NCBI GenBank assembly: GCA_008632985.1
Contig: QPGO01000051.1
Location: 1 to 64,000 of the forward strand
Origin: Psammoneis japonica
Taxonomy: Eukaryota
Length of the DNA: 64,000 nt
Direction of reading: 5' to 3'
Part shown: positions 2,690-64,000 of the stretch, piece after piece
Layout: each line of letters starts with the position of its first letter
Numbering within the stretch: the stretch's first letter is position 1
Translations under genes and position numbers: made by a program
The notes under the pieces: model-generated
Databases searched by the model: none
Seen by the model: the letters and a program-made list of their open reading frames with translations, nothing else
What the model was told of the DNA's origin: nothing

Positions 2690-3300
2690 TGGAACCTTTT
2701 AACAAGGATGCCAAAATTGCTTGCAGCTGGTGGTGATCCGGGACTCTGGACCATCAACAATTTCCTCAGTGAGGAAGAGGTGGACAGGATGACAGAGTTG
2801 ATGCATGGGGTTGGTTGTGATCAAGGCATGTTTGGTCCATGTGCTGTCAGTGACCGAATCCCCAGTTCATGTTCATTGTGAGAGCAACACCAAGGTGTGC
2901 TTCAAGATCTCTCTGGAGAGCATTTGTGAAGGTCCTTGCCAGTTCTCCACTTGCAAACACGAGCCAGACCCCCAAAGATGCAACCTCAGTGGCCGAAATC
3001 AGGGCTGGGTTCAAGAGCTTGTGGTGAACTGAAGTTGAACTTGAAGAACACCTGCGACTCCAGCATGCTTTGAAAGGCAGTCCTCCTGCATCTGCCTTCA
3101 CAGCAATGACAACCAAGCTATCTTGCTGGTGTGCTCTGTCTCTCAGATGGTGACACACTGCTCTTCTTTCCAAATCTTGACATTTTGATCATCCCCAAGA
3201 AAGGGACAGCGGCAATGTTCCTCAGTTTGTGCAAGGATGGAAGTTGCAACCCCTGGCCAACCACTCAGATCAGGCCCATTCAGAAAGTGCTGGAGACTGC
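2690..3300 (+). pseudogene. Decayed prolyl 4-hydroxylase-like (2OG-Fe(II) oxygenase) remnant
   Basis: Fragments in different frames: LWTINNFLSEEEVDRM (cf. P4H 'hnFLSxeEcdxL') and DGDTLLFFPNLDILIIPKKGTAAMFLSLCKDG (cf. 'GGETxFP...vkPkkGdAlxF'). Confidence 0.55.
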
Positions 3301-4932
3301 ACCATGGCACTTTTTTTCTGTAAAGAAGAAGTCCTCGGAAGTGTGGTCTTGTTGGAGGTGGAAGTGCAGGAGAAAGTGCGAAGATCACTGTGGTTTGGTT
3401 CAGCATCACCGGCTGCATTGCCTGCAACAGCTGCATCACTCCCCGAGCTGTTTTTTGGCAGAACACCATGGTCAAGAAAAGGCTGCTGCCATGAAAACAA
3501 TGGGGTTGGCATGCCCAACATTCATGTGGGCAATCATTTGGCATGTTGACTCTTGGAGAACAGGAGATCTTGAAATGGCTTGCAAAACTTTGAGTCCAAT
3601 GACAAAGCATGTCCACCAGAACCAAAGCATGAAGAAACAATGAGATTTTGATGTGGAGAGGGGTCACAGTGGGCCCAGCATCTGCTCAGAGAAGTTGAGA
3701 TGATGGGGGGTGGACAAGGTTTGTTCCAAAGAACACAACTGGACAAAATTTGCAATTTCAACCTTTGGTCTCATGCTTTGTGTTGGAAATTGGTGCTGTG
3801 TTAAAAGCAGGCAGGAAATGCACACTGGCCACCTTCATTTGAGCAATGTGTCAAATGGCTTTTTTCTGTCTTAAGGTCCAACAATGTTGCCAAAAGCTGA
3901 CATGCTCACAACATGTGCAAGCATGAGAAGATGGAAAGCAAGACTCAGCAAGCCATTTTTCCAGCTTGAGTCACAGCCACCTTGGCAGCATCTCTGTCAC
4001 AGCAACCTTGGCCAAGGGCTCCAAGCTCCAAAGTGACAGCAACATGGAGCAAGCACTCCACAGAACCTGCAAATCATCCAGCTCCACAAGAATCAGAGTT
4101 GACAACAAGCACACATGCACTTGCTGCACAAACTGCTTTGCTGGTGAACAAAGCCAAGCTTCAGACTGCCACCCAGGAGCTCAAGTTTGTGGCTGCAGAT
4201 GTTGAGCCAACCAGCACTGCACTGGTGTGTTGGAAAAAATGAGGGCATTGTCAAAGTGCCAGCTGCAGCAAAAAACAAAATTGCCATGCTCCAGATTGTT
4301 GTCTTGCAGCAGCTGGCAAGGAGAAATTGGAATTTTGCATTGTGCACACAAGTCACTTTCTGAAGTGAGTGCTTGCATTGACTGCCATGGCCAGTCTCTT
4401 TCCAGAAAGAATGAAAAGTGCTCTGGAGCAAAATGAGAAAAAAGGAAGCTTGCTTCTCAAGTTGTGAACCTTGCTGAGTTGCAACTTGACAGCACCACCA
4501 CCTTGACCAACCAAAGCCAAGAGCAGGAGATTGGCAAAACAAAGAGCAACAGATCTGACACCTCAATGATGCTCTGGCACAAGAAGTGCAAGTTTCAAAT
4601 TAAACTCTGAGCATTGATCTCAGTCAGTTGTGGCTGCACAAAGTGCAGCTGCCAGTCATGTCAACCAATTGAATGAGCAGATTTGAGACTTCAGAGAGGA
4701 GAAAAGGAGCTGCAGGTGTGTGTGCAATGGGGGGTGCTGTTCTTTAGATTGAGTCATGGGGTGGTCTTTTCCAATCACAGTGCACCAGCATTGATGGTTT
4801 GCTGCACCACAATCCCATGGATGCATGAAGTGAGGTGCAGCACATTGCCACACTTGCATCTTTCCAACGTTGTCACATCCGCCGCACATGTTTGGGTGTT
4901 GATGGGAGCTGATGTGCAGACGTGTGCACAAC

Positions 4933-5185
4933 ACATGCATGACTTTGCATGTTTGAGCACCGTCATTCAGACAGCATTGTTGCCCTTTTTGTTGTGCACA
5001 AACAGGGCACATTTTCAAAGAATGTTGCAAACTTTTTGATGGCATTGTCTGGTGTCAACACATTGAACATGCATGACTTTGCATGTTTGAGCACCATCAT
5101 TCAGACAGCATTGTTGCCCTTTTTGTTGTGCACAAACAGGGCACATTTCCAAAGAATGTTGCAAACTTTTTGATGGCATTGTCTG
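4933..5185. repeat. Two-copy direct tandem repeat, period 134 bp
   Basis: acatgcatgactttgcatgtttgagcacc...tgatggcattgtctg at 4933-5051 and 5067-5185, about two mismatches. Confidence 0.95.
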
Positions 5186-5501
5186 TCATTCTGCACAACA
5201 AGTGTGGCACAGCAGCACACTGTCTTGATGCCAATTGGTGATCAGGGAATCACATCCTGGCATCAAACACAATCTCAACCAACCAGCCATGATGAATCCA
5301 GCAATGGCAGCATTGGAAATCACACCCAGTGGGTGCAGACAACTCCATGCTGTGACACCCAGTGCCAGGGGGAGATTCAAGAAATCTGGACGAAACCTCT
5401 GCCTCCAAGCGCGCGTTGCCTGATCGTACCGTACGCACTGTAGACCTCTAGATGCCCTCTTTTCGACTTCTTCAGTTCCCGGAACTATGACGTGACACGC
5501 A

Positions 5502-11697: not shown

Positions 11698-13700
11698 CTA
11701 TGTGAGATAGAACGCAGAGACTGCGTACACCATCCCGATCTTGAACTCTGCCATGTAACATCCGGCACCGCCAAGCATGCCGGGATCCCTAATTCTGAAT
11801 TTCCATGTGCCATTCTTGGCCATGTACTTCATGGTGCCACCACGCACGCCAGTGGCCTCCGAGGCGCCGTTTGATCCCAGCTTACTAACACGCACCAACT
11901 CCGGGCCACTTCCTTCATCATCCGTTTCTTCCGTGCATGAGTTCTCTACCTGAATCTTCAACACGAGTTTGCCGCCAGTGGCACTTGCTGCTTTCCCCTC
12001 CAAGAATGGGCTGCAAAGACGCTTCAAGCTCTTGCTTGGAACAGATGAATCAATCTCCACCCCACCCATTGGCCTCATGCTCTTTGTGGTCAGCTGGTTG
12101 GGAACCAAAGGGCAACTGTCGCAAGTGTCTCCAACGCCGTCGCCATCGCTGTCAGCCTGGTCAGGATTCAAAACCGAGGGGCAGTTGTCCCTGTCATCAA
12201 GAATGCCATCACTGTCAGCATCCCTGAGCTTTAACACAAAGAGACCGTGACCTCCATCGTGCCCCTTCATCATAAAAAAACAGCTCTTGATTCCAAGGCA
12301 TTAGATGGGACAGGCATGAAACAGAACCAATGACCACTTCTGAACTGCCAAGAGCACGATCATGTGCCCAAAGATCTTGCTGCTGTCCACTGTGAGCTTG
12401 GAAATGCAACTTTCCCCAAAAGGGTCTCTGACAACTTGGAGAAGAACCACCCCGACCGGGATTGACATCCTTTGTCATTTCTGTCCGGCGATGGGATCAT
12501 GCACCCACAGCTCTTCTCGATGCAAAAATCCACGGCCTTGAAGTGCAGCATTCCATCCATTGGCACGAAGTCACCTGGCAAAGAACTTCTTTGACCACAA
12601 CAGATGTCCTTCACCATCTTTGTTTCTCAAGTGGTGGGATCATGCACCCAAAGCTCCCATCCATGCACTCCATCAGTTGCAGAGACATGCAGCTTTCCAT
12701 TCGTTGGCACTAAACCACGAAGATAAAAACTGTGTTTGCCTGGCCTGATCTTGACCACATTTGTTTCGTTGTTGGTGGGATCATGCACCCAAAGCTCTTG
12801 TCCATGTGTTCCATCATCAGCAACGAAACACAGCTTTCCATCAAGTGGTGTGAGCCTGAATGGAGAAGAACCACGCCGGCCAGGATTGACATCCTCTGCC
12901 ATTTCTGTGCGCCCGCTGTTGGGATCATGCACCCAAAGCTCTGGTCCATGCATTCCATCATCAGCAACGAAATGAAAAATTCCATTCCCTGGGATCAATT
13001 CCCCCGGGCTGATGTCCTTGACCATCTTTGTTTCATTGTTGGCAGGACCGTGCACATCCAAAGCTCTCGTCCATGCAATCTGCGTTCGGCGGAGAAGTGC
13101 AGGCAGCTTTCCATCAACTGGCAGGAAACTTCCTGGATGAGAATCATGCCAACCGGGATTGACATCCTTTGTCATTTCTGTGCACCCGCCAATCAGATCA
13201 TGCACCCAAAGCTCTCGTTCATGCAGTCCATCACTGGCCGTAAAGAACAGCTTTCCATTCATTGGGATCAATTCCCCCATTTCAGAACTTGTCTCACCCG
13301 GCCCAATGTCCTTGACCATCTTTGTTTTGCAGTTGGTGGGATCATGCATCCAAAGCTCTTGTCCGTGCAATTTGTGGTCTGTGGAGAAATGCAGCTTTCC
13401 ATCAACCAGCGGCAAGTTTCTTGGACAAGAAGCAAGCCGACCAGGATTGACATCCTTGACCATCTTTGTTTTGTCAATGGTGGGATCATGCATCCAGAGC
13501 TCAGAGCTCTCATCCATGCCATCCATCATCAGCCACAAAGTGCAGCTTTCCACCCAGTGGAGTGAAGCTGCATGGAGAAGATTCACCTCCTCCACCTGGA
13601 TTGACATCTGCGACCATTCTGCAATTGCCGCTGATGTGATCATGTGCCCACAGCTCCCTCCCATGCATCTCTAAACATCTGCAGAAAAATGTGCTTTTCC
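11698..13700 (-). pseudogene. ELWxxDGT-type repeat (beta-propeller) protein with C-terminal thrombospondin type-3 Ca-binding repeat; 5' part decayed
   Basis: About 9-10 repeats of ~47 aa (HGxELWxHDPT...MVKDVNPG...GKL[H/C]F.ADDG) spread over several frames; [38 protein letters not shown] in ORF 11698..12273. Confidence 0.85.
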
Positions 13701-15149: not shown

Positions 15150-15975
15150 CCAATTGTGCGATGCACAGGTGACACTCAAATGATCAACATTGTGAGAGAA
15201 AGAATGCAAGAAGAATCTGTGGTCTTGCCACAGCAGCCTCCATGGACCCAGCCCCAATGGACTCTTGATGAGTGCAGTGTCATTGAAGCAAAGGTCAGTT
15301 GTGCTTGGCAGAGCAGCAGACACTGCACTTTGTGAAACGAGGCAGTGCAAAACGATGACTCAAAACGACCCTCCTCACGCTAAAAAGGGCAGCCCTGCAT
15401 TGGACCCACAATGTTCTTGGGATGCCTTGATGCCACCAAACTCCAGCTCAGCTGCATTTGGGCACATCTGAACAAATGCAGAAAGGGATTGTGCATCATC
15501 CCATCAAGTTGATGTGTTGTTGTTGGGATCTGAAGCAGAAATTGCCAACTTTCGAATTTGTGCCAGTTGTCCAAAACAATGATTGACCGCAAATGCGTGA
15601 TTTTTCCACTCCGCTGATTGCAAGAGCAGCACAGTTTTCTCCAGAAGCATTGTTCCCAGTTGCTTTCCTGATGACATTACGGAAGGAGTCTGAAGTGCTC
15701 TTGTTGGTGAAGAAAATGTCAGCGATGCGTTCTTGGTTGAGCGATTCATTGTTGGGCACTTCATTGCACCCCCTGCCACAAACAGCCACTGTCTTTAAAT
15801 CATCCAAGGAAAGACAGGTGAATGTCTTTACCTTGCATTCCATTGGAAGACTGTCAAACACAGCAACAAAAGTGGTGTCTTCATCATCAACTTCATTGTT
15901 GTTGTCAAGACGCTGGCACTTGTGGCACTGGGTTTTGGCAGAAACATCCGGTGGCAACTTGCAAGTCATCATCAA
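15150..15975 (-). pseudogene. F-box protein pseudogene, copy 1
   Basis: FDSLPMECKVKTFTCLSLDDLKTVAVCGRGCNEV matches the F-box pattern (LPxExxxxIFxYLxxxDL); frameshifts downstream. Confidence 0.7.
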
Positions 15976-16367
15976 GAGACTGGACGACTGTGTTGATCAA
16001 ACAAAGGGCAGTTGACACTGCCTTTCTCAAACAGCAAGTGCAACACTCATCTCTCATCCCTCAACTTCCAACTTTTTGGGACTCCCTCAAACGTTTGACT
16101 CATCCGACCAAAATCGAAGGAAGCATCAGCAAGAGTGCACTTTGTGTGTTGAGTGTGCATCTGTTTGTGTGTGTTTTAAAAACATCAGATTGCTTTTGGC
16201 AAACTGGATGCAATCGTGATCATTGGCATCATTTGGACACCAGAGTGTGGCCACATTGATGGACAAATGTTTTCAAATGAAGAACGGAAGTCAAACGAAC
16301 ATGGGTTCTTTTCCTGCAACTCAGTGCTGGCAACTCCAAACTTCAGAAGTCTCTCACTTTCTCAGCT

Positions 16368-17132
16368 GTGATTGACAGAGCAAGTGTTGTCACCATGTCT
16401 GCTTGCCTTCTCTTCTCCATGTTTGAGATCACATCTTTGCTTTGATGAAGAGCTCAGCCGTCCTTGCTTGTTTTCTTGATTTTCTGACATGTCTTCATGA
16501 AAATCTCAAAAGTAAAAGCGCTCTGCATTGAGGAGTCAAAGGGTCTGTCCATTTGCCTTCCCATCCTTTTGACCATTTGTGCTGTCATCCAAGTTTGGTT
16601 TTTGAAAAAGACTCGCGAGACCAGTCTCCAGTGTGAACGCAAAATTGAATTGTTGAGTTGCCGCCTCAAACTTCAGGAGGAACTGCAACAGCATGGCAGC
16701 ACTTCTCTTCAAGGAATGGTGAATCGTCTCAAGCTCAAACAGGAAACTTACAAAATGTTGCATCTCGTTTTGACAAACGTTGTCAAAGACTCAGCCAAAC
16801 ACCCACCCTGCAGCGAATGGAAACTTGAGGATTTAAAACATGAGAGATCCGTTGGTTTGATGCACCGTCACCACAAGTGTCGCAAAGAAATCTGTGGAGA
16901 GTGGACCCTTGAAAAAGCTGAAATCCATCAAGAGCACAAGGGAGCCATTTGCAAGACATTGAGCAAGTTTCTCAAACGTGCTGAGGATGGATGCCCTCAT
17001 GGACCAAAGGCAATTGTGTCAAAAAAGACACAGCATGCATTTCGAAACCACGTTCAGAAAAAGAAAGCCGCCAAGGAAATGGGGGCCAAAATGCTTGAGC
17101 TCGTGCAGAAGATGCAGGCCTTGAAATTGTAA
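16368..17132 (+). pseudogene. Mutated paralog of the 18458..19513 membrane-anchored coiled-coil gene
   Basis: Shares KISKVKA, VWFLKK, one LQxERKIE...GSTSLQGMVNRLKL unit and the C-terminus; Tyr-free; 5' region disrupted. Confidence 0.75.
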
Positions 17133-17223
17133 AGAACAAGGTGAGCATGTGGTCAGTGGGCATCTTCTGGCACCCGACTCATTGTGGTGGTGCTGCTTCT
17201 GCTTGAGCAAGCAAAAAGCCATC

Positions 17224-18033
17224 ACGAGTGCGATGCTCCGGCGATGCTCAAACGCTCAAGATTGCCCAAGAAACAGCACAAGAAACTCATTTGATCATGC
17301 CACAGTTGCCCCCATGAACTCTCAAAAACAGAGTCATTGAAGCAAATGTCAGTTGTGCTTGGCAGAGCAGTGTCTGCTCTGCAAACTGTGAAAGCGGTGC
17401 AGTGATTTAAAAAAAACCTCCTCAGGCTCAAAAGGGCATGAGAGCAGGTGCCCAAAAATTCTCAGGACACCTTGATGCCATTTAGCTCCAGCCCAGTTGC
17501 ATTTGAGCACATCTGAACAAATGCAAAAAGGGATTCTTCGTCTTCCCATCGAGTTGATGCGTTGTTGTTGTTGTTGGGATCTGAGTCGGAAATCACCAAC
17601 TTTCGAACTTGTGGCAGTCGCCCAAAACCAAGACTGCGCAAGTGCAAGATTTTTCCACTCTGCTGATTGCAAGAGTGGCACAGTTTTCTGCAAAAGCATT
17701 GTTCTTGGTTGCTTTCCCAACAGCGTTGCAGAACAAGTCTGAGGTGCTCTTGTTGGTGAAGAAAATGTGGCGGCAATTCGTTCTTGATTGAGCGATTCGT
17801 TGTTGCGTGCTTCATTGCACCTCTTGCTGCAAACAGCCACTGCATTTAAGTTCATCCAAGGAAAGATTGGTGAATGTCTTTACCTTGCAATCCATTGGAA
17901 GACTGTCAAACGTGGCAACAAAAGTGGCATCTTCGTCTTGGGTTTCATCAAGACGCTGGCGCTTGTTGCGCTGGGTTTCGGCTTTGTCACCCGACGGCAA
18001 CTTCAAGAAAATGGATGAGGTAAATCGAAACAA
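17224..18033 (-). pseudogene. F-box protein pseudogene, copy 2
   Basis: FDSLPMDCKVKTFTNLSLDEL then frameshift to AVAVCSKRCNEARNNESLNQERIA; collinear with copy 1. Confidence 0.7.
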
Positions 18034-18457
18034 AGTTTAATTGATGCTGCCTTTCTCAAACAGTGACCACAATGCTCGGCAGCTCTCAAACTTACAACTT
18101 TTTGGGGTTTGGGGGTGTCGCGCATCTCATCACAGTCGCGAGATTCTCATTCAGATCAGCACCCCCCCTCTGACGTTTGACTCATCCGACCAAAATCGAA
18201 GGAACTGACAGTCCCAGTACCGGTATCAGAAGAGTGTAGTTTGTGTGTTCTATATATGTATTTGTTCTTGGATATTAGTGTAATTAATTTTCGGCAAACC
18301 GAGAGCAATCGTGGCCAATGAGCATGGTTTAGACAGAGGAATTTAAATATATTAATGAACAGATGTTTTTAAAATAGAACGGACGTCAAACCAACACGGA
18401 TTCTCCTGCTCGATCCACGCTGATAAGAACACAAATCGTCTCACTTTCTCTGTTGTT

Positions 18458-19513
18458 GTGATCGATAGAGCAAGTATTGTCACCATGACTGCTTACCTTC
18501 TCTTCGATATGCTCAAGCTCGCCATTATGGCTGTTCTTGTTGCTTCTATTGGCATGGAAATCCCTCTCGCTTTGTTCTGCGTCTTCGTTTTGACGAAGAG
18601 CTTGGCCGTCCTTGTTTTCTTGATTTTCCGACGCGTCGTTTCGAAAATCTCAAAAGTAAAAGCGTTCTTCATGAAGGGTCTATCCATTCGCCTTCCCATT
18701 CTTTCTACTGTTCATGCTGTCATCCGAGTTTGGTTTTTGAAAAAGACTGGTGCGACCATTCGCCTTCCCGTCCTTTCTACCATTTATACCGTCATCCGAG
18801 GTTGGTTTTTGAAAGAGAATGTTGCGACCAAGCTCCAACGTGAACGCAAAATCGAAGTATTGAATCGCCACCTCAAGCTCCAGGAGGAACTTCGACAGCA
18901 TGGCAGCACTTCTCTTCAAGGAATGGTGAATCGTCTCAAGCTCCAACGTGAACGCAAAATCGAAGCATGGAATCGCCACCTCAAGCTCCAGGAGGAACTA
19001 CGACAGTATGGCAGCACTTCTCTTCAAGGAATGGTGAATCGTCTCAAGCTCCAACGTGAACGCAAAATCGAAGCATGGAATCGCCACCTCAAGCTCCAGG
19101 AGGAACTACGACAGTATGGCAGCACTTCTCTTCAAGGAATGGTGAATCGTCTCAAGCTCCAACGTGAACGCAAAATCGAAGCATTGAATCGCCACCTCAA
19201 TCTCCAGGAGGAACTACGACAGTATGGCAGCACTTCTCTTCAAGGAATGGTGAATCGTCTCAAGCTCCAACGTGAACGCAAAATCGAAGCATGGAATCGC
19301 CACCTCAAGCTCCAGGAGGAACTACGACAGTATGGCAGCACTTCTCTTCAAGGAATGGCAAATCGTCTCAAGCTCCAACGTGGACTCAGGGAAGTCGCGG
19401 CGAAAAAGATTCCGAACGCATTTCGAAACCACGTTCAGGCAAAGAAAGACGCCAACGAAATAGAAACCAAAATGCTTGACCTCGTGCAGAAGATGCAGGC
19501 CTTGAAATTGTAA
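18458..19513 (+). CDS. Hypothetical protein: N-terminal hydrophobic helices plus five 36-aa coiled-coil-like repeats
   Basis: Open 351 aa frame (first ATG at 18485); repeat KLQRERKIEAWNRHLKLQEELRQYGSTSLQGMVNRL. Confidence 0.65.
   Translation: MIDRASIVTMTAYLLFDMLKLAIMAVLVASIGMEIPLALFCVFVLTKSLAVLVFLIFRRVVSKISKVKAFFMKGLSIRLPILSTVHAVIRVWFLKKTGATIRLPVLSTIYTVIRGWFLKENVATKLQRERKIEVLNRHLKLQEELRQHGSTSLQGMVNRLKLQRERKIEAWNRHLKLQEELRQYGSTSLQGMVNRLKLQRERKIEAWNRHLKLQEELRQYGSTSLQGMVNRLKLQRERKIEALNRHLNLQEELRQYGSTSLQGMVNRLKLQRERKIEAWNRHLKLQEELRQYGSTSLQGMANRLKLQRGLREVAAKKIPNAFRNHVQAKKDANEIETKMLDLVQKMQALKL
18830..19383 (+). repeat. 108-bp coding tandem repeat, five near-identical copies plus a partial
   Basis: Units start at 18830, 18938, 19046, 19154, 19262 and 19370 (partial). 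Confidence 0.97.
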
Positions 19514-20243
19514 AGATTTAGGAGAACGTGCGGTCAGTGGGTATCTTCTGGTACCCGACTCGTTGTGGTGGTGCTACTTCTATTTGAGTAAGCAAAAAGC
19601 CATCGAGTAGCTGATTTAACACGTTGACACTGAAAATTTGCAGGGGCGAGGGAGCGAAAGACACCTTCCACAATTATATGAAACGTTAGAATAATTCACA
19701 TTTCAAGACAAACGATACGTTCCATTTAGAATTATTTGTATAGGTACAATCGTCCAGACTCACAGAAACTGCCGCGTTAAAATCCTCGCAATAAACCGAC
19801 CACGTATCCCAGCGCTGCACCAAATGTAAAGAGTACGAGTCAATGATTCCAACAGCTCTTGTGTTTGGCCACGCATACCACATGCTGATTCGAATTGATG
19901 ATTCCAGCACCTCATGCGTTTGGCTGCGCACATAGCACCTCTTCCAAGCGTAAACCCGAGCGTCCCATCACGGCTGCTTCAACTCCCTTGATACCGGCTA
20001 CCGTCGAGTCCGAGTGATGTGTTGCAGCCACCAAGGCCACGATGTTTGGTCCTCCGACTACGAGTAGGAATCCTACCGTGGCCCCAATCGATGCGGCCAC
20101 CGCCCAACCCGATACCAACAACTTCATACCTCTCTGCTTCCTCCGAATACAACCCCCCTTTCACGTCGCGACTGAAGGATGGGTTTCCGCGACTGAAAAT
20201 CGAAAATTTCAATCTTTAGGCGAATGCCGAGCAAAACACTTGT

Positions 20244-47589: not shown

Positions 47590-50500
47590 GTGATGAATTG
47601 TGGACAAGAACAACTCTCCAAGACCAATGCTTGCAGTGCCGGTCAGCACCTCCTCAACATCATCAAACCGCTCCTCGCCAGCATTAAACTCCAATTTCAC
47701 AGCATGGGTGCTGTCAAAACCAGGACACTTCTTCGTGCGAGTGGGGTGCCACCACCACCACCATGTGATTGAGTCAGCTTCATGCTCTCAAAGTCAGAGG
47801 AATCAAGTTTTGCCCAGCTGTCAATGCAGGGTTCTTTCAACGATCCAATCATCAAAAAATTGAGCACAATTGTGCAACACAGTCCTTTCCAAGGACTCCA
47901 TCTTGTTCTCCAACTCATCCTGCAGGAGGGATTCGCTCCAGTCTCCATCCCGCTCTTCTGATGACTGCAACTGCAGCGCAAGGTCAAACAAGACAATCAC
48001 TTGAAAGACAAAAAAGAACTGCTGTTGTTTGCCTGGAAGTTGTCAACACAAGCTTCAAACTTGCAACTGTTCTTGCAAACCAGATGGTTCACTCCAAAGA
48101 ATGAGACAAGCTGAAAAATGAGCGAGATTGGCAACAATCTGATCTGAGCACAAAGAGTCACCAAATCCACCACGTCATGATCTTCAACATCTTCTCTTCA
48201 ACACATTGGTCTCTCTTGAGGTCTGACATTCCCTTGGTTGCCTCTTTGCAGTCATCCTTCAAATCGGCAAAAAGCTGGCGTGCACCGTCCATTGTCAGAG
48301 CAGCTGATCATGTTGTCAAACAAGTGTGTCACACCATGAACACCCACTTTTCACAAAACACTCCACACAATCATGACAGAGTCTCTCTTTCTTGTCCTCA
48401 CTTCCCCAACCCCAGACCAGATCCATTGTCAAACCATTGATTGCTTTGGGAGTCAAGTCAAAGAGCTTCTTTTCTCTGCAGCACGACCACTCGCACGACT
48501 TCCATGCAGTCAGGTGAAAATTCACAGTGGAAGAATGACGCTGACTTCTTTGCATCACAAATGATGCTGTCATCATCCCTCATGAGTCCATGATGAGTCA
48601 TGATGATGTCAAGATTGGGGCTCTTGACAAGTGTTGTGAGGAGGGGGGTGCCTCATGCCCCACTCTTGTCCATGCCACATGGATGCAGACAAACATTTGA
48701 CTTGCCATGCTGGTCTTGAATGTCACTCTTGCTCAGGAGGGCCAACTGCAACTTGTTGCCCAATGATCTGGAAATGCACCTGTCCTTGATGCACTCTCCA
48801 TCACCAGGCAGCTGTGGACAATGGTGTGCCACACACCTTGCCTTGAGGCTCAGCTTCCAACAATTTGCCAATGTTCTTCTTTTTGGTCTTGGGAGCTTCA
48901 TTGGCCAATCTCTTAATTTCACACATGTGTCTCCAATCGTTGCAGTGGAGAACATTGGTGCAGCAGTGGACACATGCTCCACTGTCTCAGAGCTCCATTG
49001 TGCCATTTCTCCATGCACTTGCATCAACAACTTGTGTCCAATGTCACATTTGGGTCTTCTGCCCTCATTTCCTTGATGGAGTCCAACACCTGCTGCAAAT
49101 CCAGGGTGTCTTGGTGGAGGTGTGGATTGAGAGTCAGTGTCTTCCAGCTTCCAGTCACTCTTGTTCCACCTCTTCAGCTCTTCCATCACTGCTCTGCAAT
49201 CTTCAACCACTGTTTCTTACATTCTTGGGTTGCTCAGACCTGGGAGTCTCTCTTGACAAACTGGCCAACAGCTCAGTGGCCATGCCTTTGTGACATCGTG
49301 TCACAACACATGCAGAGCTCACATGAATCATTGTTGAAGTGGTTGATGTTCATTTGCAGCCACAGATTGTGGCTGGATGACCCATTCAGTTCAGTGCCCT
49401 GCTTGCCAGGTTGCAGAGGGATTTTTCACCCACATGTGTCAGAGTTCTTGTCTGATGACATAAAGAACAGGAAATGCTCCTTCCATGTGCAAAGTTGACA
49501 ACCCATGCAATGGCTTGTTTGAACTTTCAAAACTTTTTGCCTCGCAGTGGCTCAGTCATCAAGTCTCCAAGCACGTCATCAGCAGGACAGGCCCAGCATT
49601 GCACTCTTAGATTGCCTTCTTCATCTGGTTGGCAACAAAGAAATGCTGAATGCCGAGTGCTCTCAACCACTTCTTGCTGGCACTTTTGCTCCCATGGCTC
49701 CAACAACTTGGACTTAAAGGACTTGTTTGCCTTTTTCCAGGTTCACACATTGCCTGCACAGGTTGGGATCAATGCTCACCAGCATGTCAACCAACACTCC
49801 TGTGATCTTTGCCACAATCCATCTGGCCATTGTCTGCATGGGTGCATTTGGCACATCTGTGCTCATGACATTGCACTTGGCATCAACAATTGCCATCACA
49901 AATGTCCCTTCTGAGGATGCTGGTGGGGTGGCTGACTCATTTTTGCCTGGCCATTCTTGAGTTGGTTTCCCACCGCAACCCATTCTTTGCCCTTTGGTGC
50001 AACCATCATGTTTCTTGACTGGGAACATCAAGGCTGCTGTCGCCTTGGTCCTTTTAGTCAGAGTCATGTCCTTGACTGATGCTGGTGCAAAGCACACTTG
50101 GTCATGCAGTCATGTTTCATTTCTTTCGCTGAGGTGTCATGCCCCCTCTGGCCAAAGAATGCTTTGAGGCCTTCACGCAGCAGATGCTGCTGGGCAAATG
50201 AAATGCCCTCACCTGGTCAGAGTTGGCAGTCAGTCTTGCACACAAAGGGTGCCATTTCCACTGCTGTCTCCACATCACAGTTGACACCATCCTCTTGATT
50301 GGGGCTCAAGTTTGTTTTTTAAATGACGGCAGTGCTTGAGCTTGTTTTGCTCTTGTTGAACTTTGTTTTCTTTGTGCTTGCTTGATTTCATGTTCAAGAA
50401 GGATGATGCAGCACAGCTTGTGCTGCTCCTGCTTGCTCAGCCAGGCATGTCACTTGTCTCTTTCCCATCTGTTGTCTTCATTGGGTTGGTCAGCATCTTG

Positions 50501-53500
50501 TGATGCTGCAGCTTTTTTTGTGTTCCTCATCAACATCTTGATGATCTTCATTTTCTTCATTTCCACAGTCTCTGTCTTGTGCTTCTTGATTGCTGTGCTG
50601 TTGACTGGGACTGAACAATTTCTTCCACAGCCAGAATCTCATTTGCTTCTGCATGCTCATCATTGCTTTGAGTCTGCTTCTTTTTTGTGATCTTCATCAT
50701 CAGACTCGGTCACACAGTTGACATTGTTGTGATCATCTTTGCAACTGCCCTCCTTTCTGTTGCTTTCATTGCTGTCACTTTTGTGGTTGTCTGCTCCTGC
50801 AGTCCACTCAGCATCTTGTGGATTGTCTCAACATTTGCACGTGAATTTAAATTCCTTGAGATGCCTTGTTGTTTGATGGCCATCCTCTCAACTGCCTGCA
50901 CATGCACATCAGTCAGGGGTGCAAGGTGCACTTGCAGGGTTTCAACAGCTTGCCCATGCGCAGGTTCACAGCACAGTGTCCACCCTTGGGCAGATCAAAA
51001 TGTGGTTGCAGGCACATGCTGTCAACACCACGTGCATCCACAGTGTTTGTCAGGTTGTTCTCAATGCATGAGAAATCACAAATTTCCCAAACTGCTGAGC
51101 TGGAAGTGTTTGCAGTGATTGTTCCTTCATTGCACAACAGTGTGTGGAATGTGAGTGTCAGAAATCCCTTCATTCTTTGAGCACATGTTTGCACATGGCA
51201 GCATTCTTGATGACAGCTTGCTTGCACCACATCAACTTGGGTGTCATCTTGCATGGCACATGGTGTGTGGTGGCTTGAGTTTGCTCCTTGATGATCTGCA
51301 TGCTCAGCTCAACTTCAAGCACATGGTCTTTTGCATCATGGAAATCAGTTCCAGATTTCTTGAACTCAGAATCACACTCAACAAAGTCAATCTGCTTGAA
51401 CAGGGCTGTGTTGTTCTGTTGGAGAATCATGTCCAGCACTTCATGAATGTCATCATGTTTCTTGGACCTCAGTCTCATTCTTGATTGGCACTTGATTGTC
51501 TTGTCCCCATGCTTCCATGGTGTCAATGCAGAGGATCATGACTTTTTCTGCTTCTCGCATGTCTCAGGTGGTGTGACCATCATGCTGTTCCTCTCATGGG
51601 AATGGCACCATGCATGCTTGGCCTTGCCTTTTGCTGCACGTCTGTTGGTGGACCCAAAATGGCTCCCATCCTGTCCACCCCATCTCCCAGGCATGGTGCA
51701 GCACTTGTCCAAGGTGTCCACTCCTGTGCTGGTGGATGGCACAACCTTGACCTTCGTCAGATGCACATTGTTCACTGGTCTCTGGCTTGCTGCCATGCTG
51801 AGGGTTGTAGAGCCATTGGCAAGGATGAGTTCATCTGACTCAGTTCCCACACTGGCTTGGCTCAGGATCATCTCTGGACTCTCTCTTCATCCAGCTGGCA
51901 TCTGTGCCATGTGCACTTCTTGCTGCTTTGGCTTTGGCTTGATCTGTCAGATCTGGCAGCATCAGTGCTTGCACTGTTGCTGTCCATGGATGAGTTGTCT
52001 TCATCTTGTGTCAGTGGATGACTCTGTCCCTTGGCACCCAGTTTCTTCCTCTGGTGTTCCTGAGCCATTCATTGTGCACAATCTTGTTCTTGCACTTGCA
52101 GCCAGGGGACTTGTGGTTCAGCTCACCACAGGAGCAGCAGCACACCACATGGTTGTCTTGGTTGCCTGTCTGTGCATGACTTCAGTCAGTTCTTCATGTT
52201 GTTGGACCCATCATCACTTCTCTTGTGGCTGTCTCATTCCTGTTGTTTGAGCGCGCATTGCTCCTCTTGCCATGACATTTTCAAAGATTGTCATCTTTTG
52301 GATGATCCAGCAGTGCATCCATTGCCTTGTCTGGGGTCTTTGGATGCACGTCCTTCCCCAGGCTGCAATCTCTCATAAAACTCTTCTTCAAGCTCTTGTG
52401 AAAGCAATCATTGCTGTTCTCCACAAACTGCTCTTCTCCATGAATGGGTGCATCATTCATGCCTTGTGCGCGCTGCTGCCTTTGGGTCAAACTGGACAAC
52501 TTGATGTGCTCAATGAACCCATCCAGCATTTTTCTTCCCAGACTGTCACTTGTGGCAACTCACTTTTTGTTCTTTTGAATCTTGACAGGTGGTCATTCAG
52601 TGATTTGCACTCTTGTTGTTTCACTTCCAGCATGTGCTTCAGCAAGTCAAACAAAAGGAGGGGCTGATTCATCTTGAGCAGTGTCTCTGCCAGATCATCA
52701 TCCCCCCCAATGCTTGAGTGATTGGGGTTGCCTTGCACTCTCTGCTTCATCAGCTTGGCAAAGCAGTCATCCAGGATCTTGGTGAATGCAGCAATCTTGT
52801 TCTCTTTGAGCTTTTTCACTTTTTTGTTGTGGTCATGGAGCTTGATCTTGCGCTGGTGTTCCAGCTCTTTTTCTTCTTGATGTCTCATCCACATCTCAGT
52901 GTGCGGCAGTCTGTCTTTGATTTGTTGGTTGGCAACTCTGACTTGTGTGCATCTGATGCAGGTTTCTTTTCAATGAAATCTTTGCACTTCACATCTTCTA
53001 AGGATCTTGCCAGATGCAAACCTTGGTCACATTCCTTTTGAATGCAACTGACAACCTTTGCCTTCATCCTTGATGCCTCCACATGTTGAACTGTGAGCAT
53101 TGCTGTTTGAAGTGACAACCAACTTCATCTCAGTCAGGCTGAAAGCTTTTCTTCAGGTTGGTCTTGTTGTTGTTGTTGGAAGACTTGTGACCTCTGTCAC
53201 CTCTGCCTTGGTTGCATTGTTGGCCTCTGCCACTTGCTCTGCATCCTCCTTTGCTGCTCACAATGCAGAGTTTGAACATTGGATGAAACTGTGTGAAGGC
53301 AGTTGAAACAAGTGCCAGATGATGTGCTTGTGACTCTTTGGAGCAAATGTCAAACCAGCAAGTCCTTGTTGTCAAAAGGAAGTCCCACAAGGCTTCCTGT
53401 GCTGCTGGTTGCACTTGCTCTCACTGGCTGCTTTGGTGGCTGTGATTTGTCTGGAAGTCATCAACACAAACTTCAAACTGCCTCACAACATGACAGGTGC

Positions 53501-55340
53501 CCACAAGTGATGCAAAATGCAATTCTCACAAACCAAATGACTCACTCCAAAGAGCAACACAAACTGCTGAAAGGTGAGTGCTGAGATCAGTTGCAACACA
53601 ATCCAAATGCAAGCAGTTGTGATCTGGGTGCTCCAACACAAACACAAATGCATGCACAGGCACATTTGACTCAAAGCTCTGGAAGAAAGAGCTGGGCTTT
53701 GACCTGCTCTTTTGCGCAAGAGAGGAGGTTTGGTCTTGCAAGCACACAAGTGATGTGCACTGCCCGTGGCACTCAATCTTTGAAGCTTTGCAGCTTCAAC
53801 AACCAAACTTTTTTGGTGGTTGGTTTGCACCTGATGTCAGCCTTCACTGCAAGCCCACAAATCATGAGTCAACAACCTCATGTCCAGGTGCTGTGATGGC
53901 CTGTCAACATGGGCTGAATTTGAGTTGAAAATGGAAGGTCATCTTTCTTGTGCAAGCCATGGAGTGAGGGCACATTGTGCTGAACAAAGCAAAATTTTCT
54001 CATGCGCAATCACAATTTTGAAAGCACCTGCACCTTGCACAACAAAAATCAAGCTTTTTGTCATTTTTCAGATTCGCCAAAAAAGTGCTGACACAACCAA
54101 AATTGTCCCACGCAGTTGTGTGCTTTTGTCATTTCAAAATCCTTTGACATTGCCATGACATCATCAAGCAGCTGAATTGAAAAGTTTGCCCCAAGAAATG
54201 GCTGATGCTCACAGCACTGGCTGCATGCAGTGCCAGCATGCCAAGTTTCAAGAAAGTGGGATGGGGTCAACTGTGCCAAACAGGGAGCAGCAACACTGCC
54301 CACAAGTCATTTGATTTGCACAAAGGAAAAGAGGCAAATGATTTGAAAGGTGGCTCCTCCAGTCAAATGCTTGATCGCAGCCACACAAAATGCTCATGCT
54401 GTCATTTTCTCGGTTTGTGTCATTGGAAATTCTAACTGTTTCTGTGTCACCCACATGACACCCAAACGCTTCCTCTTAAAGTGTGCTCTTGTTTTGCATT
54501 TTTGTCAATGACACATCAGTTGTGCATGGCTCTAAAGATTTTTCTAACAAAATGTTTTACAAAAAGCAGCTTGTCAGCTGCAAAGCAGCAAACACGTGTG
54601 TTTGCAATTGCAAAATGCCAATTGCATTTGCCAACAAACCAGTTTGCAAACTGCTTTGCAAATGAGCACAAAGCAAGTGTGCACACCCCACACAGCTTCC
54701 CCCTGTCAGGGGAAGCAGAGGGGGTGCTGGCCTGCACTGAGGTGTGACAAAAAATTTTTTGAATGAAGAGCACAAAACAGCCCCACTCTGCCATCATGTG
54801 TTGTCCATTGTGAGATTTGTGTGCATTTGAAGTGCAAGCCATTCAAGCTCAAATGTGAACCCTGTTTGCAAACTTCCATGGCAAACTGCAAACACTGGTT
54901 GTGCACAATGCACCAAATGAAATCTCCAGTGTGGGCCAATCTTCCAAGGGCCCAGCTGCTGCACTTGAAGCCCATGCCATCAGCACCTTGGCGTGAGCAT
55001 GTTTCTTTTGCCCAAGAAACAAGTCTGCAACACAGGTGGGCAATGAGCCACTTGCCATCAAGAGACAACAGAGATGCACAGACCATTGTCAACCTGTTGT
55101 TGCTTGTGGGATTTTTTGGATGCTTGGTTTCATTCAAAAGGGAGTGAAGAACACACCACGGTGCCATGATGAAGAAAGCAGATTGCAGCAGAGTGGGGCA
55201 GATGTAGACAGGAAACCATCAGCTGTTGTTCATCCTTGGGGTTCATCGGTGAACAACACACATGGTTTTCTGTACATGACATGTGACACCATGAGAGATG
55301 TTGCATCATTTTCTGGCACAAAAGCTGTGGAATGTGTGAT
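47590..55340. other. TpA/CpG-depleted hypermutated domain 3 (most saturated)
   Basis: Roughly 20 TA by eye in ~7.7 kb, very few CG; normal composition resumes at ~55340-55440. Confidence 0.92.
49490..53260 (-). mobile_element. Decayed diatom-type Ty1/copia retrotransposon body (gag-PR-IN-RT-RH), internally deleted
   Basis: Gag-like KENKIAAFTKILDDCFAKLMKQRVQGNPNH; integrase-like IDFVECDSEF and DSMCLQP...GGHCAVNLRMGK; RT KKHDGCTKG...GKPTQEW...SATP...IVDAKCNVMSTDVPNA; RNase H end ...LGDLMTEPLRGKKF. Order is copia-type; LTRs not identified. Confidence 0.85.
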
Positions 55341-55621: not shown

Positions 55622-56963
55622 CTAGTATACAAAGTCTAGTTCATCGGCAGGATGAAGCGGATCCTCTTGACATTGACTGTATCGACAAGCATTCCATACC
55701 CACAAGTTGGCACCTGTAGGAAACAAACGGGACAACAAAGAAATAATGCATAAGTTACTGAAACAACACATCCGACTCGAGTTGCAAACAAAACCACTTA
55801 CCCCACTTGGTTCCCTTGAGAACCGGTCCAGCTCCATGAATAGACAGGGGATCCAACCTGCCGTCGGGCGTCTGACTGTAAAACAGCACCGCGTCTCCCT
55901 TTTTCGGTTTGACGGAAAACTTATTGTAACAATCCCTCGTCAGCCTTGCTTCCCACGAGTCCTCCTTGAGATTGGCTTTCTTGATTAACTCTTCCAACTC
56001 TTCGGCAGGCGGCGGCTCGGCCCCACCGAGGCGTTCGGCCAATTCCAGGGGTTCCTTGAGACGCGGAGCTCGGGGAAAGCATGTTTGACCACCGTGTTCG
56101 GGAGAACTGAGATACAAAAAGACCGTGGCAAAGCGATTGGAACCGCCCTTGGCGGGGTCCCAATTATGATCGGTCGACTGATAGGCCGGAAAGTAATCTT
56201 CGTGAGCGACATAGGCTTGTCCCAATTCATACCTCAAGACTTGAATCCCATCCGCCAGGCTTGGTTCAAAACGGGGCATGCGGAGCAATTCAAAAGATCG
56301 CAGTTTAATAGCATGTGCCGTGGGTGTCGAAATATCAAACGCATTCATACTAGTCCTTGTTTTCAAAACGTCATCGCGTCCGCCTTGGTTCCAACTCTTG
56401 TGTGTCCCTCCCGTCGATTGCGCCATTTTGTACGGATTCTCTTCTGCCGTGGCATATTCAATAAGAGCGTCGGTTTCCTCGTCCGTCATGAAATCGTGAA
56501 CATAAAAGGCCCGAGGCGAGTGATTCAAGACTTCCAATTCAATGGGTTTCTTGGTCTTGGGGGAAATGACTCCGGTAACAATGCGGTGCCCCGGCTTAAA
56601 GGCTGGATACACAAAGTGCGTTCCCGGACGAGTCGGGCCTTCAAACAAAACGTCTGTTGTAATGTTGGAAAGGTCCTGTTTAAAGCCCTGTTCGTTGTAA
56701 TACGACTTATCAGGATCCAACTCGGACAAATTCATAACTTTTCCGTCCTTGCCGGTACCATCGCCGCCGCCATTGGGAAACACAGTGACTGTCTGTGACG
56801 GACATGATTCAGATTCGTCAGAGCAAGAAGAAGTCGTTTCAGTCGCTAGAGACAGAGGCAGAACTGCAAGTAGCAAGCTTAGAGGCAACATGTTGATACG
56901 GTCAGCAGCCTGAGACAGCGGCAGCGCCGCGAGCAACAAGGAGAGACGCATCTTCACGGTCAT
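55622..56963 (-). CDS. Prolyl 4-hydroxylase alpha-like 2OG-Fe(II) dioxygenase; intron 55714-55801
   Basis: PRAFYVHDFMT, RTS, IQVLRYELGQAYVAHEDYF, NRFATVFLYLS, GGQTCFP, KPKKGDAVLFYS, SIHGAGPVLKGTKW|GANLWVWN; signal peptide. Confidence 0.92.
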
Positions 56964-60899: not shown

Positions 60900-63720
60900 T
60901 GTCGCTAATGACCATGTGGTCCGCAAGAAGACACATGCGAAAGGATGGAGGCAATGAAGAATCCAACAATCAACATGTCAATGCGTCTGGGGACGAGGTG
61001 CCGTGCGGTGTCAAGACACGACCTTTTCAGGTTGAATGCCCGGATGGTTGGTTCAATGAGCACCGCAGCATGATTGGACCAGCGAATTGGATCGTGCACA
61101 ATCCATGCTGACGCGCCTTGTCGACCGTTTTGCTTGAATTTCTCCATGCTAGGGAGGTTATCAGAGCCACACAATCTATCCCACTTTGCACGCTTGTTGC
61201 GTTTCTTCTGCACTTTGCTGCACTCAAGTCAAACTCTCGAAATCCGCGCAGCTCCAGCTCTGTGTCTGCGGCAGCAGAGCTGCGACAATCGCAGCATCAC
61301 CTCACTTGTGTCATGCAGCATCAAAATGTCTTCTGATTCCCATGGCATTGAACAAATCAGGTTGTGGCATCCTGCTCCTGGGGACTGTCCGCTGTGGCGC
61401 CGCTTCCAGATTCCGGTCGCACAGCTGGTGGCAGGGAAGAGCACGTGTGGAGCCACTCTGGATCAATCATTGCTGCCATGTTCTGCTCTCAAGCTTTCAC
61501 CCAACCAAGCAACAGCAGATGACCGTCTCACACTTTCACTTCTCGCAGCAACTGCGCGACTTTTGCTGTTGGTCACCCCATCTTCCACGCTGTTCGAGCT
61601 CTCACCACAGCCAATTCCCCATTCTCCTCTGTCTCACCAAGGCTTCCACTCTGATCTCCCAAGGAGGAGGATGACAAATGAGATCTCTTTGGCCACACGT
61701 TCAGCTCCTTCGGTCAAAATCCTCAGTTGGGCCTTGTCCTTGTTGCAGAACTCAACATGTGTTGGAACCGTGTGGAATTGAAAAAACACCAAGAAGAGAC
61801 AAGAAACAACCGCAAACAGAAACAAGGCTTGGTTCTTGGCCCCACTCAACCACACGCGGCTTCCCAAAACTGCAAACAAATGAACCAGCATCCCGGCCTG
61901 GACAAAGCACGTCCCAATGAAAAGAGACGTCCCAATCACATTGGCTCGTGTTTGCCAAACCAGGTTGTCAGAACAGTGATGAAGAAGAAGTGCCACAAAG
62001 AGGCCGACCTCGTAGCTGATCATGAAGCTGAGGGTGAAGTTCGCCTTGAAAAAGAAGACCGATTTTGTCAACCCTGCTGCCACAATCAGAGCAAACACCA
62101 TCAAGTGATGAAAGAGGAGCCTTGAGGTCTGTTTGCTGAATGTGAAGCATCCCAGTGGCGCTGAGAAAATCCTCCGAGCACAGACGGGGGTCTTTGATGT
62201 TGTCAAAGTTCAGAATGGCAGAGAATGCAAAGGACGCCACACCAGCTGGCATGGTTTCGCCGCAAAAGACAATCCAGGCATGAATCGTCGTTCAACCATG
62301 ATGCCAACGAAAAACTCAACATTGTCTGCACTCGCACAAAGTTCCTTCAGTGCCCTTGTTGCCTCTGATGAAGCTCTGAAGTCTTCAAAGCTCTCCAGTC
62401 GAGGGAGATGGAAATGCTCCCGATGGTCATTGAAACCTTGCATCCCTTGAGTTTGCTCATCCTGGATCGTTTGAACTGCGACCTCCTTTGGACAAAAAGG
62501 AACATTGAACGCTTCGATGCTCCCCATGGGAGTGCAATGGAAGGCTCACAAAAAGTCGGCGGGATGATGTTGGGAGTGCATTTCAGGCTTCCAAAGAAAG
62601 TCCAGCCAGGGGCCCTGTGCTCTCTAACTTTCAAACTCAGATTTTCTTGCCACGACTTGTCTGCAAGTTGTGCAGTTTCCCGCCAAAATCCTCAATCCGT
62701 TGGGCCGCGCCTCTTGCACTGCTGCTCATTCTTTTGAAACACTTGCCTGTCCATGGAATGTGATGATGCTGTGGCCTCTTAAAGCCAACAAACCCAAGCA
62801 AGATTGCAGTGACACTCCAGCAGTTAGAAGGGCAAAGGAAGGCCTCCTGCTCTGCAGCCACCAAGAGGAGCACCACATCATGTGTCAAGAAGTTGGTGAC
62901 TTGCTGCTGATGCAAGTGGCTTTCTTGGATGTTGGATGCTGACTGGGCTGTTTTTTGGTGTGACAAACATGCGACAAAAGTCGACACATGATGCGCTCCA
63001 GCCGAGTTTCTTCAGCCCCTGAAAAAACCTGTGTGGCCTGCTCTGAGCCATGAGCCACATGCAGTGACTTGCAAAGCACAGCAAAACAACACACAGGTCC
63101 ATTGCCGGTGGCTCAATGTGCGCCGCGACCTGCAAGCAGCGCGTCCCATTGATGTGCAGCTGCGACGGCCCAAACCCGGGTGGCGCCCCCCCACATGCAT
63201 TTGACAGAGTGTCTCATCATGATGCTGCCATGATCTAAAATTGGTGGTTGTCAATTGGTGATTGTGCATCAATGACTGCATGAGCAGCTGAAACTCTGGT
63301 GCACAAGGCAGAATTTGCTGAGGTCGCTGTGTGAAAAAAGAGCTGCTCCACATTGTGACGTGGGCCCACAGAATTCCATGTGCAAGCCCCGCAGTGTGAC
63401 AATTTGGTCAATGGACCACCTGTCTTCAATGTCCAAAGCTTGACATTTGGCATTTTTTCAAATCTGCCTGCCGACGCCACTCTTTTGAGACACGTTTGAG
63501 GGTGCTGCTGGTGGCTGCAAAAAATGCCAAAAGTTGTTGAGTTGATTTTCCAACAATTGCGCCACAAAATGACACACAAAATGTTGCCAAAGCTATGCAG
63601 AAATGTGAGAACATGACATGAGGCACATGACAAAAACTTCTGTGTCACAGCCCAGTGCTGCCAAGGCATTACGTGTCAGCAAAATCACAGCAGCTGATGA
63701 TTTTTTTCAGGATTGCACCA
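60900..63720. other. TpA-depleted domain 4 (CpG only partly lost)
   Basis: TA nearly absent from ~61190 to ~63660 while many CG remain; TA-rich again from ~63745. Confidence 0.85.
60905..63350 (-). pseudogene. Decayed heme peroxidase-cyclooxygenase family gene followed by a multi-pass membrane region
   Basis: QGFNDHREHFHLPRLESFEDF...ALKELCASADNVEFFVGIMVE matches the PGHS/alpha-DOX pattern 'FNeYRxxFxL....FEel...LxxLYgdvdxvexyxG' with Tyr->His/Cys; hydrophobic ORF 61634..62206 downstream; multiple frameshifts. Confidence 0.7.
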
Positions 63721-63997
63721 CAGACCCCATGGACGGGTTCCAGTCCTAGGTGGGACTCCGTGTGACATTGGGCCCGTAGAATTCTACGTGCGAGCTCCGT
63801 AGTACGAGAATTTAATTAATGCATATATTTATCTTCAACATCAAATAAACTGCCAAGTTTGTGGTACAATTATGCCTCTTGCCACTCGACGTTTTTGCAA
63901 ATGCGCCTGCCCTACGCGATTCTTAAGACATTATAGAATCGCGCTGTAACAAAAAATGTCAAAAGTTGTTGGACGGATCGCTCAATAAGTGTACCGT
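63350..63997. repeat. Diverged direct repeat pair (~63350-63570 and ~63760-63997)
   Basis: tgggccc..agaattc... blocks at 63361 and 63769; caaatctgcctgcc/caaatgcgcctgcc; aaaaatgccaaaagttgttg/aaaaatgtcaaaagttgttg. Confidence 0.8.
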
Positions 63998-64000
63998 NGC

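Follow-up and report, generated by a model that had tools for sequence, protein, structure and literature searches.

The first 64,000 nucleotides of Psammoneis japonica contig QPGO01000051.1 (forward strand; hereafter the window) have a G+C content of about 48% along their whole length and contain four sharply bounded blocks that are poor in the dinucleotides TA and CG, with CA and TG nearly doubled. We analyzed these blocks, and above all the third, D3, which is, as judged from its sequence, a degenerate Ty1/copia retrotransposon together with unique flanks. In all four, TpA was turned into TpG or CpA, on both strands alike and at a rate that depended on the base 3′ of the adenine. With Y for a pyrimidine and R for a purine, we classed each TA as YTAR, as one-strand (YTAY or RTAR, where one strand alone offers 5′-TAY-3′) or as RTAY. 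The domains are as follows.

1 to 5427, no strand assigned: D1, a block poor in TA and CG, with 18 TA (YTAR 9, one-strand classes 9, RTAY 0).
11947 to about 18200, no strand assigned: D2, with the relic of an ELWxxDGT-repeat/TSP3 gene and one copy of a tandem segmental duplication; TA stays low until about 18200.
47590 to 55340 (7751 bp), no strand assigned: D3, a block depleted of TA and CG and saturated with CA and TG, with 19 residual TA.
61100 to 63700 (approximate), no strand assigned: D4, with the relic of a haem-peroxidase gene; TA is gone and CG partly lost.

In the 1-kb windows of D3 between 48001 and 55000, observed/expected (o/e) ratios were 0.00–0.07 for TA, 0.04–0.18 for CG, 1.76–2.33 for CA and 1.59–2.08 for TG. 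CG o/e across the domains overall was 0.04–0.4, and DNA outside the blocks had TA at about 0.5 and CG at about 1.0. Expressed as fractions of dinucleotides, the loss of TA (0.034) and the loss of CG (0.042) together equalled the gain of CA/TG (0.078). Mononucleotide composition was the same inside and outside the domains, AA/TT was unchanged (in/out ratio 1.04), and each domain border was contained in a single 200-bp bin. Contigs of an independent DNA run (X1, depth about 55) reproduced the D3 sequence, indicating that D3 is not a base-calling or assembly artefact; a nanopore or bisulfite artefact was likewise ruled out by the agreement of short-word contigs at this DNA run depth.

An exhaustive phmmer search with the minus-strand read-through of D3 returned one relative, P0241 (E = 3e-23), longer homologues of which carry PF07727 RVT_2 and zf-CCHC. 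The copia homologues gave collinear tblastn matches to D3, with residues 33 to 1687 running from 52945 down to 49509. The following features were assigned within D3.

49509 to 52945, minus strand: putative relic of a Ty1/copia-type polyprotein in the order gag, integrase, reverse transcriptase (RT), with many TGA stops; about 300 amino acids of the RT are missing near 49692.
47791 to 53760, no strand assigned: multi-copy core (repeat family), with a summed contig depth of 188–865 in run X1.
48021 to 48161, plus strand: left copy of a direct repeat, a possible remnant of a long terminal repeat (LTR), 90–98% identical to 53439–53620 by BLAST in purine/pyrimidine space.
53439 to 53620, plus strand: right copy of the direct repeat, also a possible LTR remnant, from the same BLAST match to the left copy.

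The flanks of the core (47590–47790 and 53761–55340) were single-copy, with a depth of about 55–60 in run X1, and their depletion equalled that of the core. Contigs of run X1 linked the direct repeats to each other (53418 to 48029 and 53566 to 48151). A search of D3 for LTRs found nothing beyond this 140–180 bp direct repeat, a permissive alignment of the ends not being trustworthy, and six-frame read-throughs of D3 and D1 gave no Pfam match. A single long open frame on the D3 minus strand was considered and refuted, with 43 stops in 1439 codons, no fewer than in other frames. A further gene relic was recognized in D2.

12386 to 13656, minus strand: eight ELWxxDGT repeats (TIGR04534, E = 2e-72), with a TSP3 repeat (TSP_3 match) upstream; relatives are mostly bacterial.

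This ELWxxDGT relic is open for 347 codons, yet all its conserved tyrosines are now histidine or cysteine. D4 gave an An_peroxidase match (E = 5e-8). The targets are thus a retrotransposon (D3), a gene of mostly bacterial type (D2) and a peroxidase relic (D4), and because the retrotransposon, its unique flanks and dead genes are all affected, the process is not restricted to mobile copies.

Residual TA was both scarce and biased in context. D3 retained 19 TA, whereas about 288 were expected from the density outside the domains (1564 TA per 42097 bp). These were six TTAA, four CTAA and two TTAG (12 YTAR), two TTAC, two ATAA, two GTAG and one GTAC, a distribution among classes that differed from that outside (chi2 = 29.5, p = 4e-7). 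Pooling the four domains, the 63 TA with full context comprised 38 YTAR, 24 one-strand and 1 RTAY, compared with 258, 841 and 465 outside (chi2 = 83.5, p = 7e-19), and the class order was the same in every domain. An earlier account of D3, made by eye from the letters (hereafter the sequence-only reading), had noted about 17 TA, about 12 of them YTAR, and a likeness between D1 and D2; it had also proposed comparing NTAN tetranucleotides inside and outside the domains. The counts bear out the scarcity of TA, the bias among classes, the resemblance of the two domains and the unequal depletion of the NTAN classes. The same account had seen no RTAY in D3 and had taken YTAR to be spared. Neither claim held: there is one RTAY, the GTAC at 55273, 70 bp inside the border, and YTAR is lost as well, as described below.

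We then fitted the persistence of residual TA with a model of two independently acting strands. Persistence by 3′ base was 0.83 for A, 0.29 for G, 0.14 for C and 0.04 for T. A purine/pyrimidine split gained 37.6 log-likelihood units, and allowing four separate bases gained a further 15.7. The tetranucleotide CTAG occurred 0 times inside the domains vs 68 times outside (p = 4e-5), and position +2 of surviving TA was rich in A (0.55 vs 0.27). Since persistence is far higher before A than before G, then falls through C to T, and since CTAG is absent, the context preference is graded and not binary, and every TA context is eventually hit.

Two pairs of duplicated sequences, each with a depleted and an undepleted copy, revealed the direction and relative rates of change, with the undepleted copies serving as a proxy for the ancestral state.

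15840 to 17224, plus strand: depleted copy of a tandem segmental duplication in D2 (pair 1), 68–86% identical to 17892–19605 and 85–95% identical in purine/pyrimidine space.
17892 to 19605, plus strand: undepleted copy of pair 1, outside D2, with normal TA and CG density and an intact 384-aa open reading frame (ORF) at 18359–19513.
63283 to 63565, plus strand: depleted copy of a very high-copy repeat in D4 (pair 2), aligned to 63689–63997; TA kept 0/15.
63689 to 63997, plus strand: undepleted copy of pair 2, with 17 TA in 200 bp and a summed contig depth of about 70,000 in run X1.

Across both pairs, the 49 TA of the undepleted copies corresponded to 19 CA, 18 TG, 2 retained TA and 10 other states in the depleted copies. 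The 70 CG of the undepleted copies had become TG/CA at 43 sites and were kept at 19. With 2/49 TA but 19/70 CG kept (p = 0.001), TA decay was about 2.5 times faster than CG decay. Transitions outnumbered transversions (205 vs 80), transversions at TA were rare, and in purine/pyrimidine space identities of 75 and 86% rose to 88 and 94%, respectively. A>G changes affected 42 of 101 adenines at TA (0.42) vs 31 of 252 at AA (0.12; p = 5e-9); counted per half-site, they affected TAY at 31/56 and TAR at 11/45 (p = 0.002). The sequence-only reading had named the adenine of 5′-TAY-3′ as the target; the TAY excess agrees with this, but the binary form of the rule was too strong. None of the 10 YTAR sites of the undepleted copies was still TA in the depleted copies, so YTAR is slow and not immune. 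Pair 1 has GTAA in both copies at the two sites where its depleted copy retains TA, which marks these TA as ancestral. Outside TA, A>G was found at AAY in 21/102 and at AAR in 10/150 cases (p = 0.0015; these non-TA changes are unpolarised), which hints that a 3′ pyrimidine aids change even without a 5′ T. In pair 1, the twin inside D2 is depleted and the twin outside is not. Because the twins differ by location, and because the repeat of about 70,000 depth carries no such mutations, the trigger would probably lie in position or chromatin and not in copy number.

The product of the change was also related to the flanks. At sites where one strand alone offers TAY, A>G at TAY predicts that RTAR becomes CA and YTAY becomes TG. 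Pair 1 gave the predicted product at 8/9 sites (RTAR: CA 4, TG 1; YTAY: TG 4, CA 0), reproducing the 7 of 8 informative sites counted in the sequence-only reading; pair 2 did so at 4/6 sites, and both pairs together at 12/15 (p = 0.018). At the protein level, tyrosines conserved in the family have become histidine or cysteine in both the ELW repeats and the copia relic, and in the latter the two outcomes, which report on opposite strands, were equal (Tyr to Cys 11, Tyr to His 11). Those YTAY tyrosine positions of the copia relic that were backed by at least two homologues gave Cys 3 and His 1. Sites at which the two depleted copies were discordant for CA and TG, 10 in number, showed no trend by flank. 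Two further sources were discarded: the ELW repeats as a source of ancestral TA, since their divergence is too ancient, and the His/Cys codons of the ELW ORF sorted by preceding base, since genuine histidines confound them.

CpG was lost from the same domains in a different manner. NCGN tetranucleotides were evenly depleted, and CG became TG/CA without flank preference. Between the window and the contigs of run X1, D3 and D4 showed CG vs TG/CA at 19/31 of the sites listed, and a single TA/TG difference, at 47686, was among them. This pattern fits ongoing decay of methylated CpG. Such decay in transposons likewise converts CG to TG/CA irrespective of flanks, but it accounts for the CG half of the signature only. 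The segment of D4 at 61200–61600 has 0 TA yet 19 CG, near the CG density outside, and complete TpA erosion can thus occur before CpG decay advances. At 63992 vs 63560, the normal copy of pair 2 has GTAC where the depleted copy has GCGC, so that a single RTAY site was hit on both strands; the outcome is a new CpG, which means that TpA change can add to the pool of CpG.

Smaller shifts accompanied these changes. In all four domains the GC dinucleotide was up 1.21-fold and AT down to 0.91; the most enriched trinucleotide was GCA/TGC (1.90), and AGC/GCT stood at 1.26. These shifts exceed the prediction from TA and CG conversion, and weaker A>G change at A-pyrimidine steps without a 5′ T may be their source.

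The genes adjoining the domains are, by their sequence relationships, stramenopile: an ASCC3-type helicase has its best named relatives in the diatoms Amphora and Mayamaea (58–59%), with other relatives at 66–68%. A prolyl-4-hydroxylase-like gene next to D3 has an 88-nt GT..AG intron (55711–55800, minus strand) that a contig from run X2 shows removed by splicing. This run is labelled 'DNA?' and behaves, at this joint, like RNA; it has no contig over D3 or D4 and carries no information on their expression. Within the undepleted copy of pair 1, 18829–19388 consists of five tandem 108-bp units, 94–97% identical, which encode a 36-residue coiled-coil-like repeat within the 384-aa ORF; the depleted twin has a single unit at 16626–16740. 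Many contigs of run X1 end at 63732–63799, in the repeat at 63689–64000. In D1, a 134-bp tandem duplication at 4924–5190 is 98% identical and much younger than the surrounding depletion. A search of the window against Rfam gave no family.

To explain these observations, we favor the following account, which as a whole we hold to be moderately probable. D3 would be silent, repeat-derived DNA, namely a dead Ty1/copia retrotransposon with its flanks, and its three sister domains would hold dead genes, including one of bacterial type. A process at the level of DNA, with no bias between the strands, would turn TpA into TpG or CpA and stay within the sharply bounded domains, and ordinary decay of CpG (presumably methylated), slower than the TpA process, would add further TG and CA. 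The rate of the TpA process would follow the 3′ base in the order T ~ C > G >> A, with a possible influence of position +2; because of this dependence, residual TA would accumulate in TTAA/TTTAAA-like contexts. The likeliest chemistry would be conversion of adenine to inosine in 5′-T-A-(Y)-3′; the enzyme, TadA/ADAT-like or another with a deaminase fold, would be recruited to chromatin that is silenced. Taken as one part of the account, this chemistry is plausible and falls a little short of probable. The data show the signature itself, its direction, its symmetry between strands, its restriction to the domains and its dependence on flanks, whereas we infer that the modified base is A rather than T, and what the enzyme and its targeting signal would be. 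The confinement of change to TpA and its modulation by the 3′ base support the enzyme-like specificity suggested by the sequence-only reading, and of the three candidates named there a TadA/ADAT-like deaminase fits best.

The native site of TadA is U-A-C-G, whose pyrimidine at +1 agrees with the preference seen here. TadA and ADAT2-ADAT3 demand a T or U directly 5′ of the target adenine, and the same holds here at the level of the sequence signature. Unlike in those systems, both strands of kilobase domains are hit here, with a +1 order of T ~ C > G >> A. Amphioxus ADAT2 (BjADAT2) deaminates DNA, with an adenine preference for GAA and hairpin loops (PMC10354150). Among deaminase-fold proteins, those with a deaminase-SAM-Tudor architecture are described as stramenopile-only (Iyer et al. 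2011).

The closest precedent, and the reason why we favor deamination, is an independent mutation-accumulation experiment in the chlorarachniophyte Bigelowiella natans. There, A>G/T>C changes were gained solely at TpA (231 de novo mutations), with a rate of about 6e-7 per site per generation, and fell in two viral regions that are integrated and silent (nucleocytoplasmic large DNA virus, NCLDV, and virophage); the TpA rate was about 1000-fold above background and active in some lines only, the genome contains 124 TpA-poor, CpA+TpG-rich clusters enriched in transposon domains, and Mettrop et al. propose an ADAT2 homologue as the agent, the same kind of enzyme as favored here (bioRxiv 10.64898/2026.01.13.699255). 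The footprints are defined there by a Rho of at most 0.43 for TpA and of at least 1.52 for CpA+TpG over at least three 1-kb windows (bioRxiv 10.64898/2026.01.13.699255). D3, D1 and D2 all fall within these limits, and because D3 does so we place it beside the B. natans case. Both cases share conversion confined to TpA, giving TpG/CpA on both strands, in sharply delimited regions of foreign or transposon origin that are silent there and presumably silent here. They differ in host, a rhizarian there and a stramenopile with diatom-like genes here; in extent, near total here (TA o/e 0.01–0.07) vs 0.45 for the B. natans NCLDV; in the CpG decay that accompanies TpA loss here; and in targets, which in the window comprise a copia element and the relics of a bacterial-type gene and of a peroxidase gene. 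The words 'CpG', 'flanking', 'context' and 'diatom' do not occur in the main text of the preprint (bioRxiv 10.64898/2026.01.13.699255). On our analysis, the D3 footprint most likely reflects the same process in a stramenopile, to which the window adds a hierarchy among flanks, a coupling of TpA loss to CpG decay, and erosion that is almost complete.

Several points count against this account, some given here and others with the alternatives below. BjADAT2, the one ADAT shown to edit DNA, prefers GAA and not TA. The rule linking flank to product is weak in the protein-based tests: with all sites counted, YTAY tyrosine positions of copia homologues were Cys in 4 cases and His in 5, and one YTAY site of the ELW repeats became His, contrary to the rule. 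Accordingly, the dependence of CA or TG on the flank stands in the DNA pairs and in DNA and protein sites combined (15/20, p = 0.021), but fades when weak protein sites are included (16/25, p = 0.11). A forward model of product contexts favors the flank rule modestly (127.5 to 93.6) and does not account for a large excess of GCA/TGC or for a deficit of ACA. The domains are probably methylated, a view that is itself derived from the CpG decay and CpG-transition polymorphism seen there. As to generality, metagenome loci around ASCC3 homologues (80 loci, 993 kb, few close relatives) contained no window depleted of both TA and CG.

The strongest alternative, unlikely in our judgment, places the modification on the other strand: a TET/JBP-type oxygenase or another enzyme would alter T in 5′-R-T-A-3′ (to 5-hydroxymethyluracil, 5hmU, 5-formyluracil, 5fU, or a similar base), which would mispair with G and yield T>C. 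As A>G at TAY is exactly what T>C at RTA looks like on the complementary strand, all counts fit equally, and the strict 5′ T with a 3′ pyrimidine preference, read from sequence as the expectation for a TadA/ADAT-like deaminase, is equally that for thymine modification at RTA. Thymine hydroxylation in dinoflagellate DNA favors TpA, and base J in kinetoplastid telomeres is located in TpA. On the other hand, we know of no TpA loss in genomes rich in 5hmU or J, and the literature on diatoms and 5-hydroxymethyluracil, among the matches listed and as far as these were seen, concerns dinoflagellates.

Slightly less likely again is a bias in the creation of TA, whereby all TA would be removed alike and the residual TA would be new, arising from C>T at dipyrimidines (YCA to YTA in either strand, as after ultraviolet light). 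Creation yields YTAR by two routes, YTAY or RTAR by one and RTAY by none, and the classes expected from it, about 50:50:0, are close to the observed 38:24:1. The nearly total loss of all TA contexts in the pairs, YTAR included (0/10 kept), is in its favor, the ratios per source fall between the predictions of additive creation and multiplicative survival, and the residual-TA pattern taken alone is explained about equally well. However, removal in the pairs was flank-dependent (TAY 31/56 vs TAR 11/45; outcome 12/15), both TA that survive in pair 1 were present in the ancestral sequence and are not new, and CTAG is absent despite common CCAG/CTGG sources.

An over-zealous T:G mismatch repair appears improbable. 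An MBD4/TDG- or Vsr-like activity on methylated chromatin would turn T:G mispairs at TpA into C:G, and the CpG decay and CpG-transition polymorphism of domains that are probably methylated, together with the complete absence of CTAG, speak for it. Very-short-patch repair in E. coli is thought to erode CTAG and raise CCAG/CTGG, and resembles the present case in TA to CA/TG change in a genome with 5-methylcytosine (5mC) and in the absence of CTAG; here, in contrast, all TA are affected, at a rate above that of CpG decay. We disfavor a repair by-product because TpA loss outpaces CpG decay about 2.5-fold and is complete where CG is nearly intact, which is hard to obtain from rare replication errors; nor is there a +1 preference for G, which would mimic deaminated CpG, since T and C exceed G.

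More doubtful still is error-prone patch synthesis by a Y-family polymerase (Pol eta, with its WA hotspot) during repair of deaminated 5mC, the second candidate of the sequence-only reading. It would be local to methylated DNA and would produce A>G at TA, but a WA-type signature is excluded because AA/TT is unchanged (in/out 1.04); A>G stands at 0.12 at AA vs 0.42 at TA, TA transversions are rare, and TA has disappeared entirely in places where few CG have changed. Least credible of all is A-to-I hyperediting of transposon transcripts that reverse transcription would then fix. In its favor, D3 is a retrotransposon, and U before the edited A is preferred by editing enzymes, but strand symmetry (Tyr to Cys 11, Tyr to His 11) and the equal depletion of single-copy flanks and of gene relics outside transposons exclude it, and a duplicate depleted according to position also speaks against it.

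Fungal repeat-induced point mutation (RIP) offers a parallel of another kind. Like RIP, the process is a burst of transitions, limited to domains, which inactivates repeats and extends into their unique flanks; unlike RIP, which turns CpA into TpA and enriches TpA, it flows in the reverse direction (TpA o/e 0.03, CpA/TpG o/e about 1.9, the opposite of the RIP polarity). With regard to duplication as the trigger, the D3 core is multi-copy, yet single-copy flanks are depleted, one duplication twin is spared and the repeat of about 70,000 depth is unmutated. Diatoms carry DNMT4 enzymes related to RID whose function is given as unknown (PMC9998398). Literature searches that paired diatoms with TpA, with hypermutation, with RIP or with 5hmU, or transposons with DNA adenine deaminase, found nothing relevant.

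So far, the 2026 chlorarachniophyte preprint is the one report of TpA-only hypermutation in silent foreign DNA. Its end-state footprint in a genome with diatom-like genes would put the process in a second major lineage, one that is ecologically weighty and has transformable model species. The flank hierarchy (TAT, TAC > TAG >> TAA, with CTAG erased and TTAA lingering) is a fingerprint for testing candidate enzymes and can be checked against published de novo mutations. Such domains destroy Tyr codons, flood the sequence with TGA and conceal transposons from Pfam, and they could pass for foreign DNA or assembly artefacts. Tentatively, and with clearly less confidence than we place in the account itself, we suggest that stramenopiles, and perhaps the whole group of stramenopiles, alveolates and rhizarians, may own a chromatin-targeted DNA adenine editor with T-A-(T/C) specificity, an ADAT2 paralogue or a deaminase-SAM-Tudor protein. 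If so, this editor would outpace methyl-CpG decay in inactivating transposons, integrated viruses and genes gained by horizontal transfer. It would mirror fungal RIP and give eukaryotes a second, independent form of genome immunity based on deamination.

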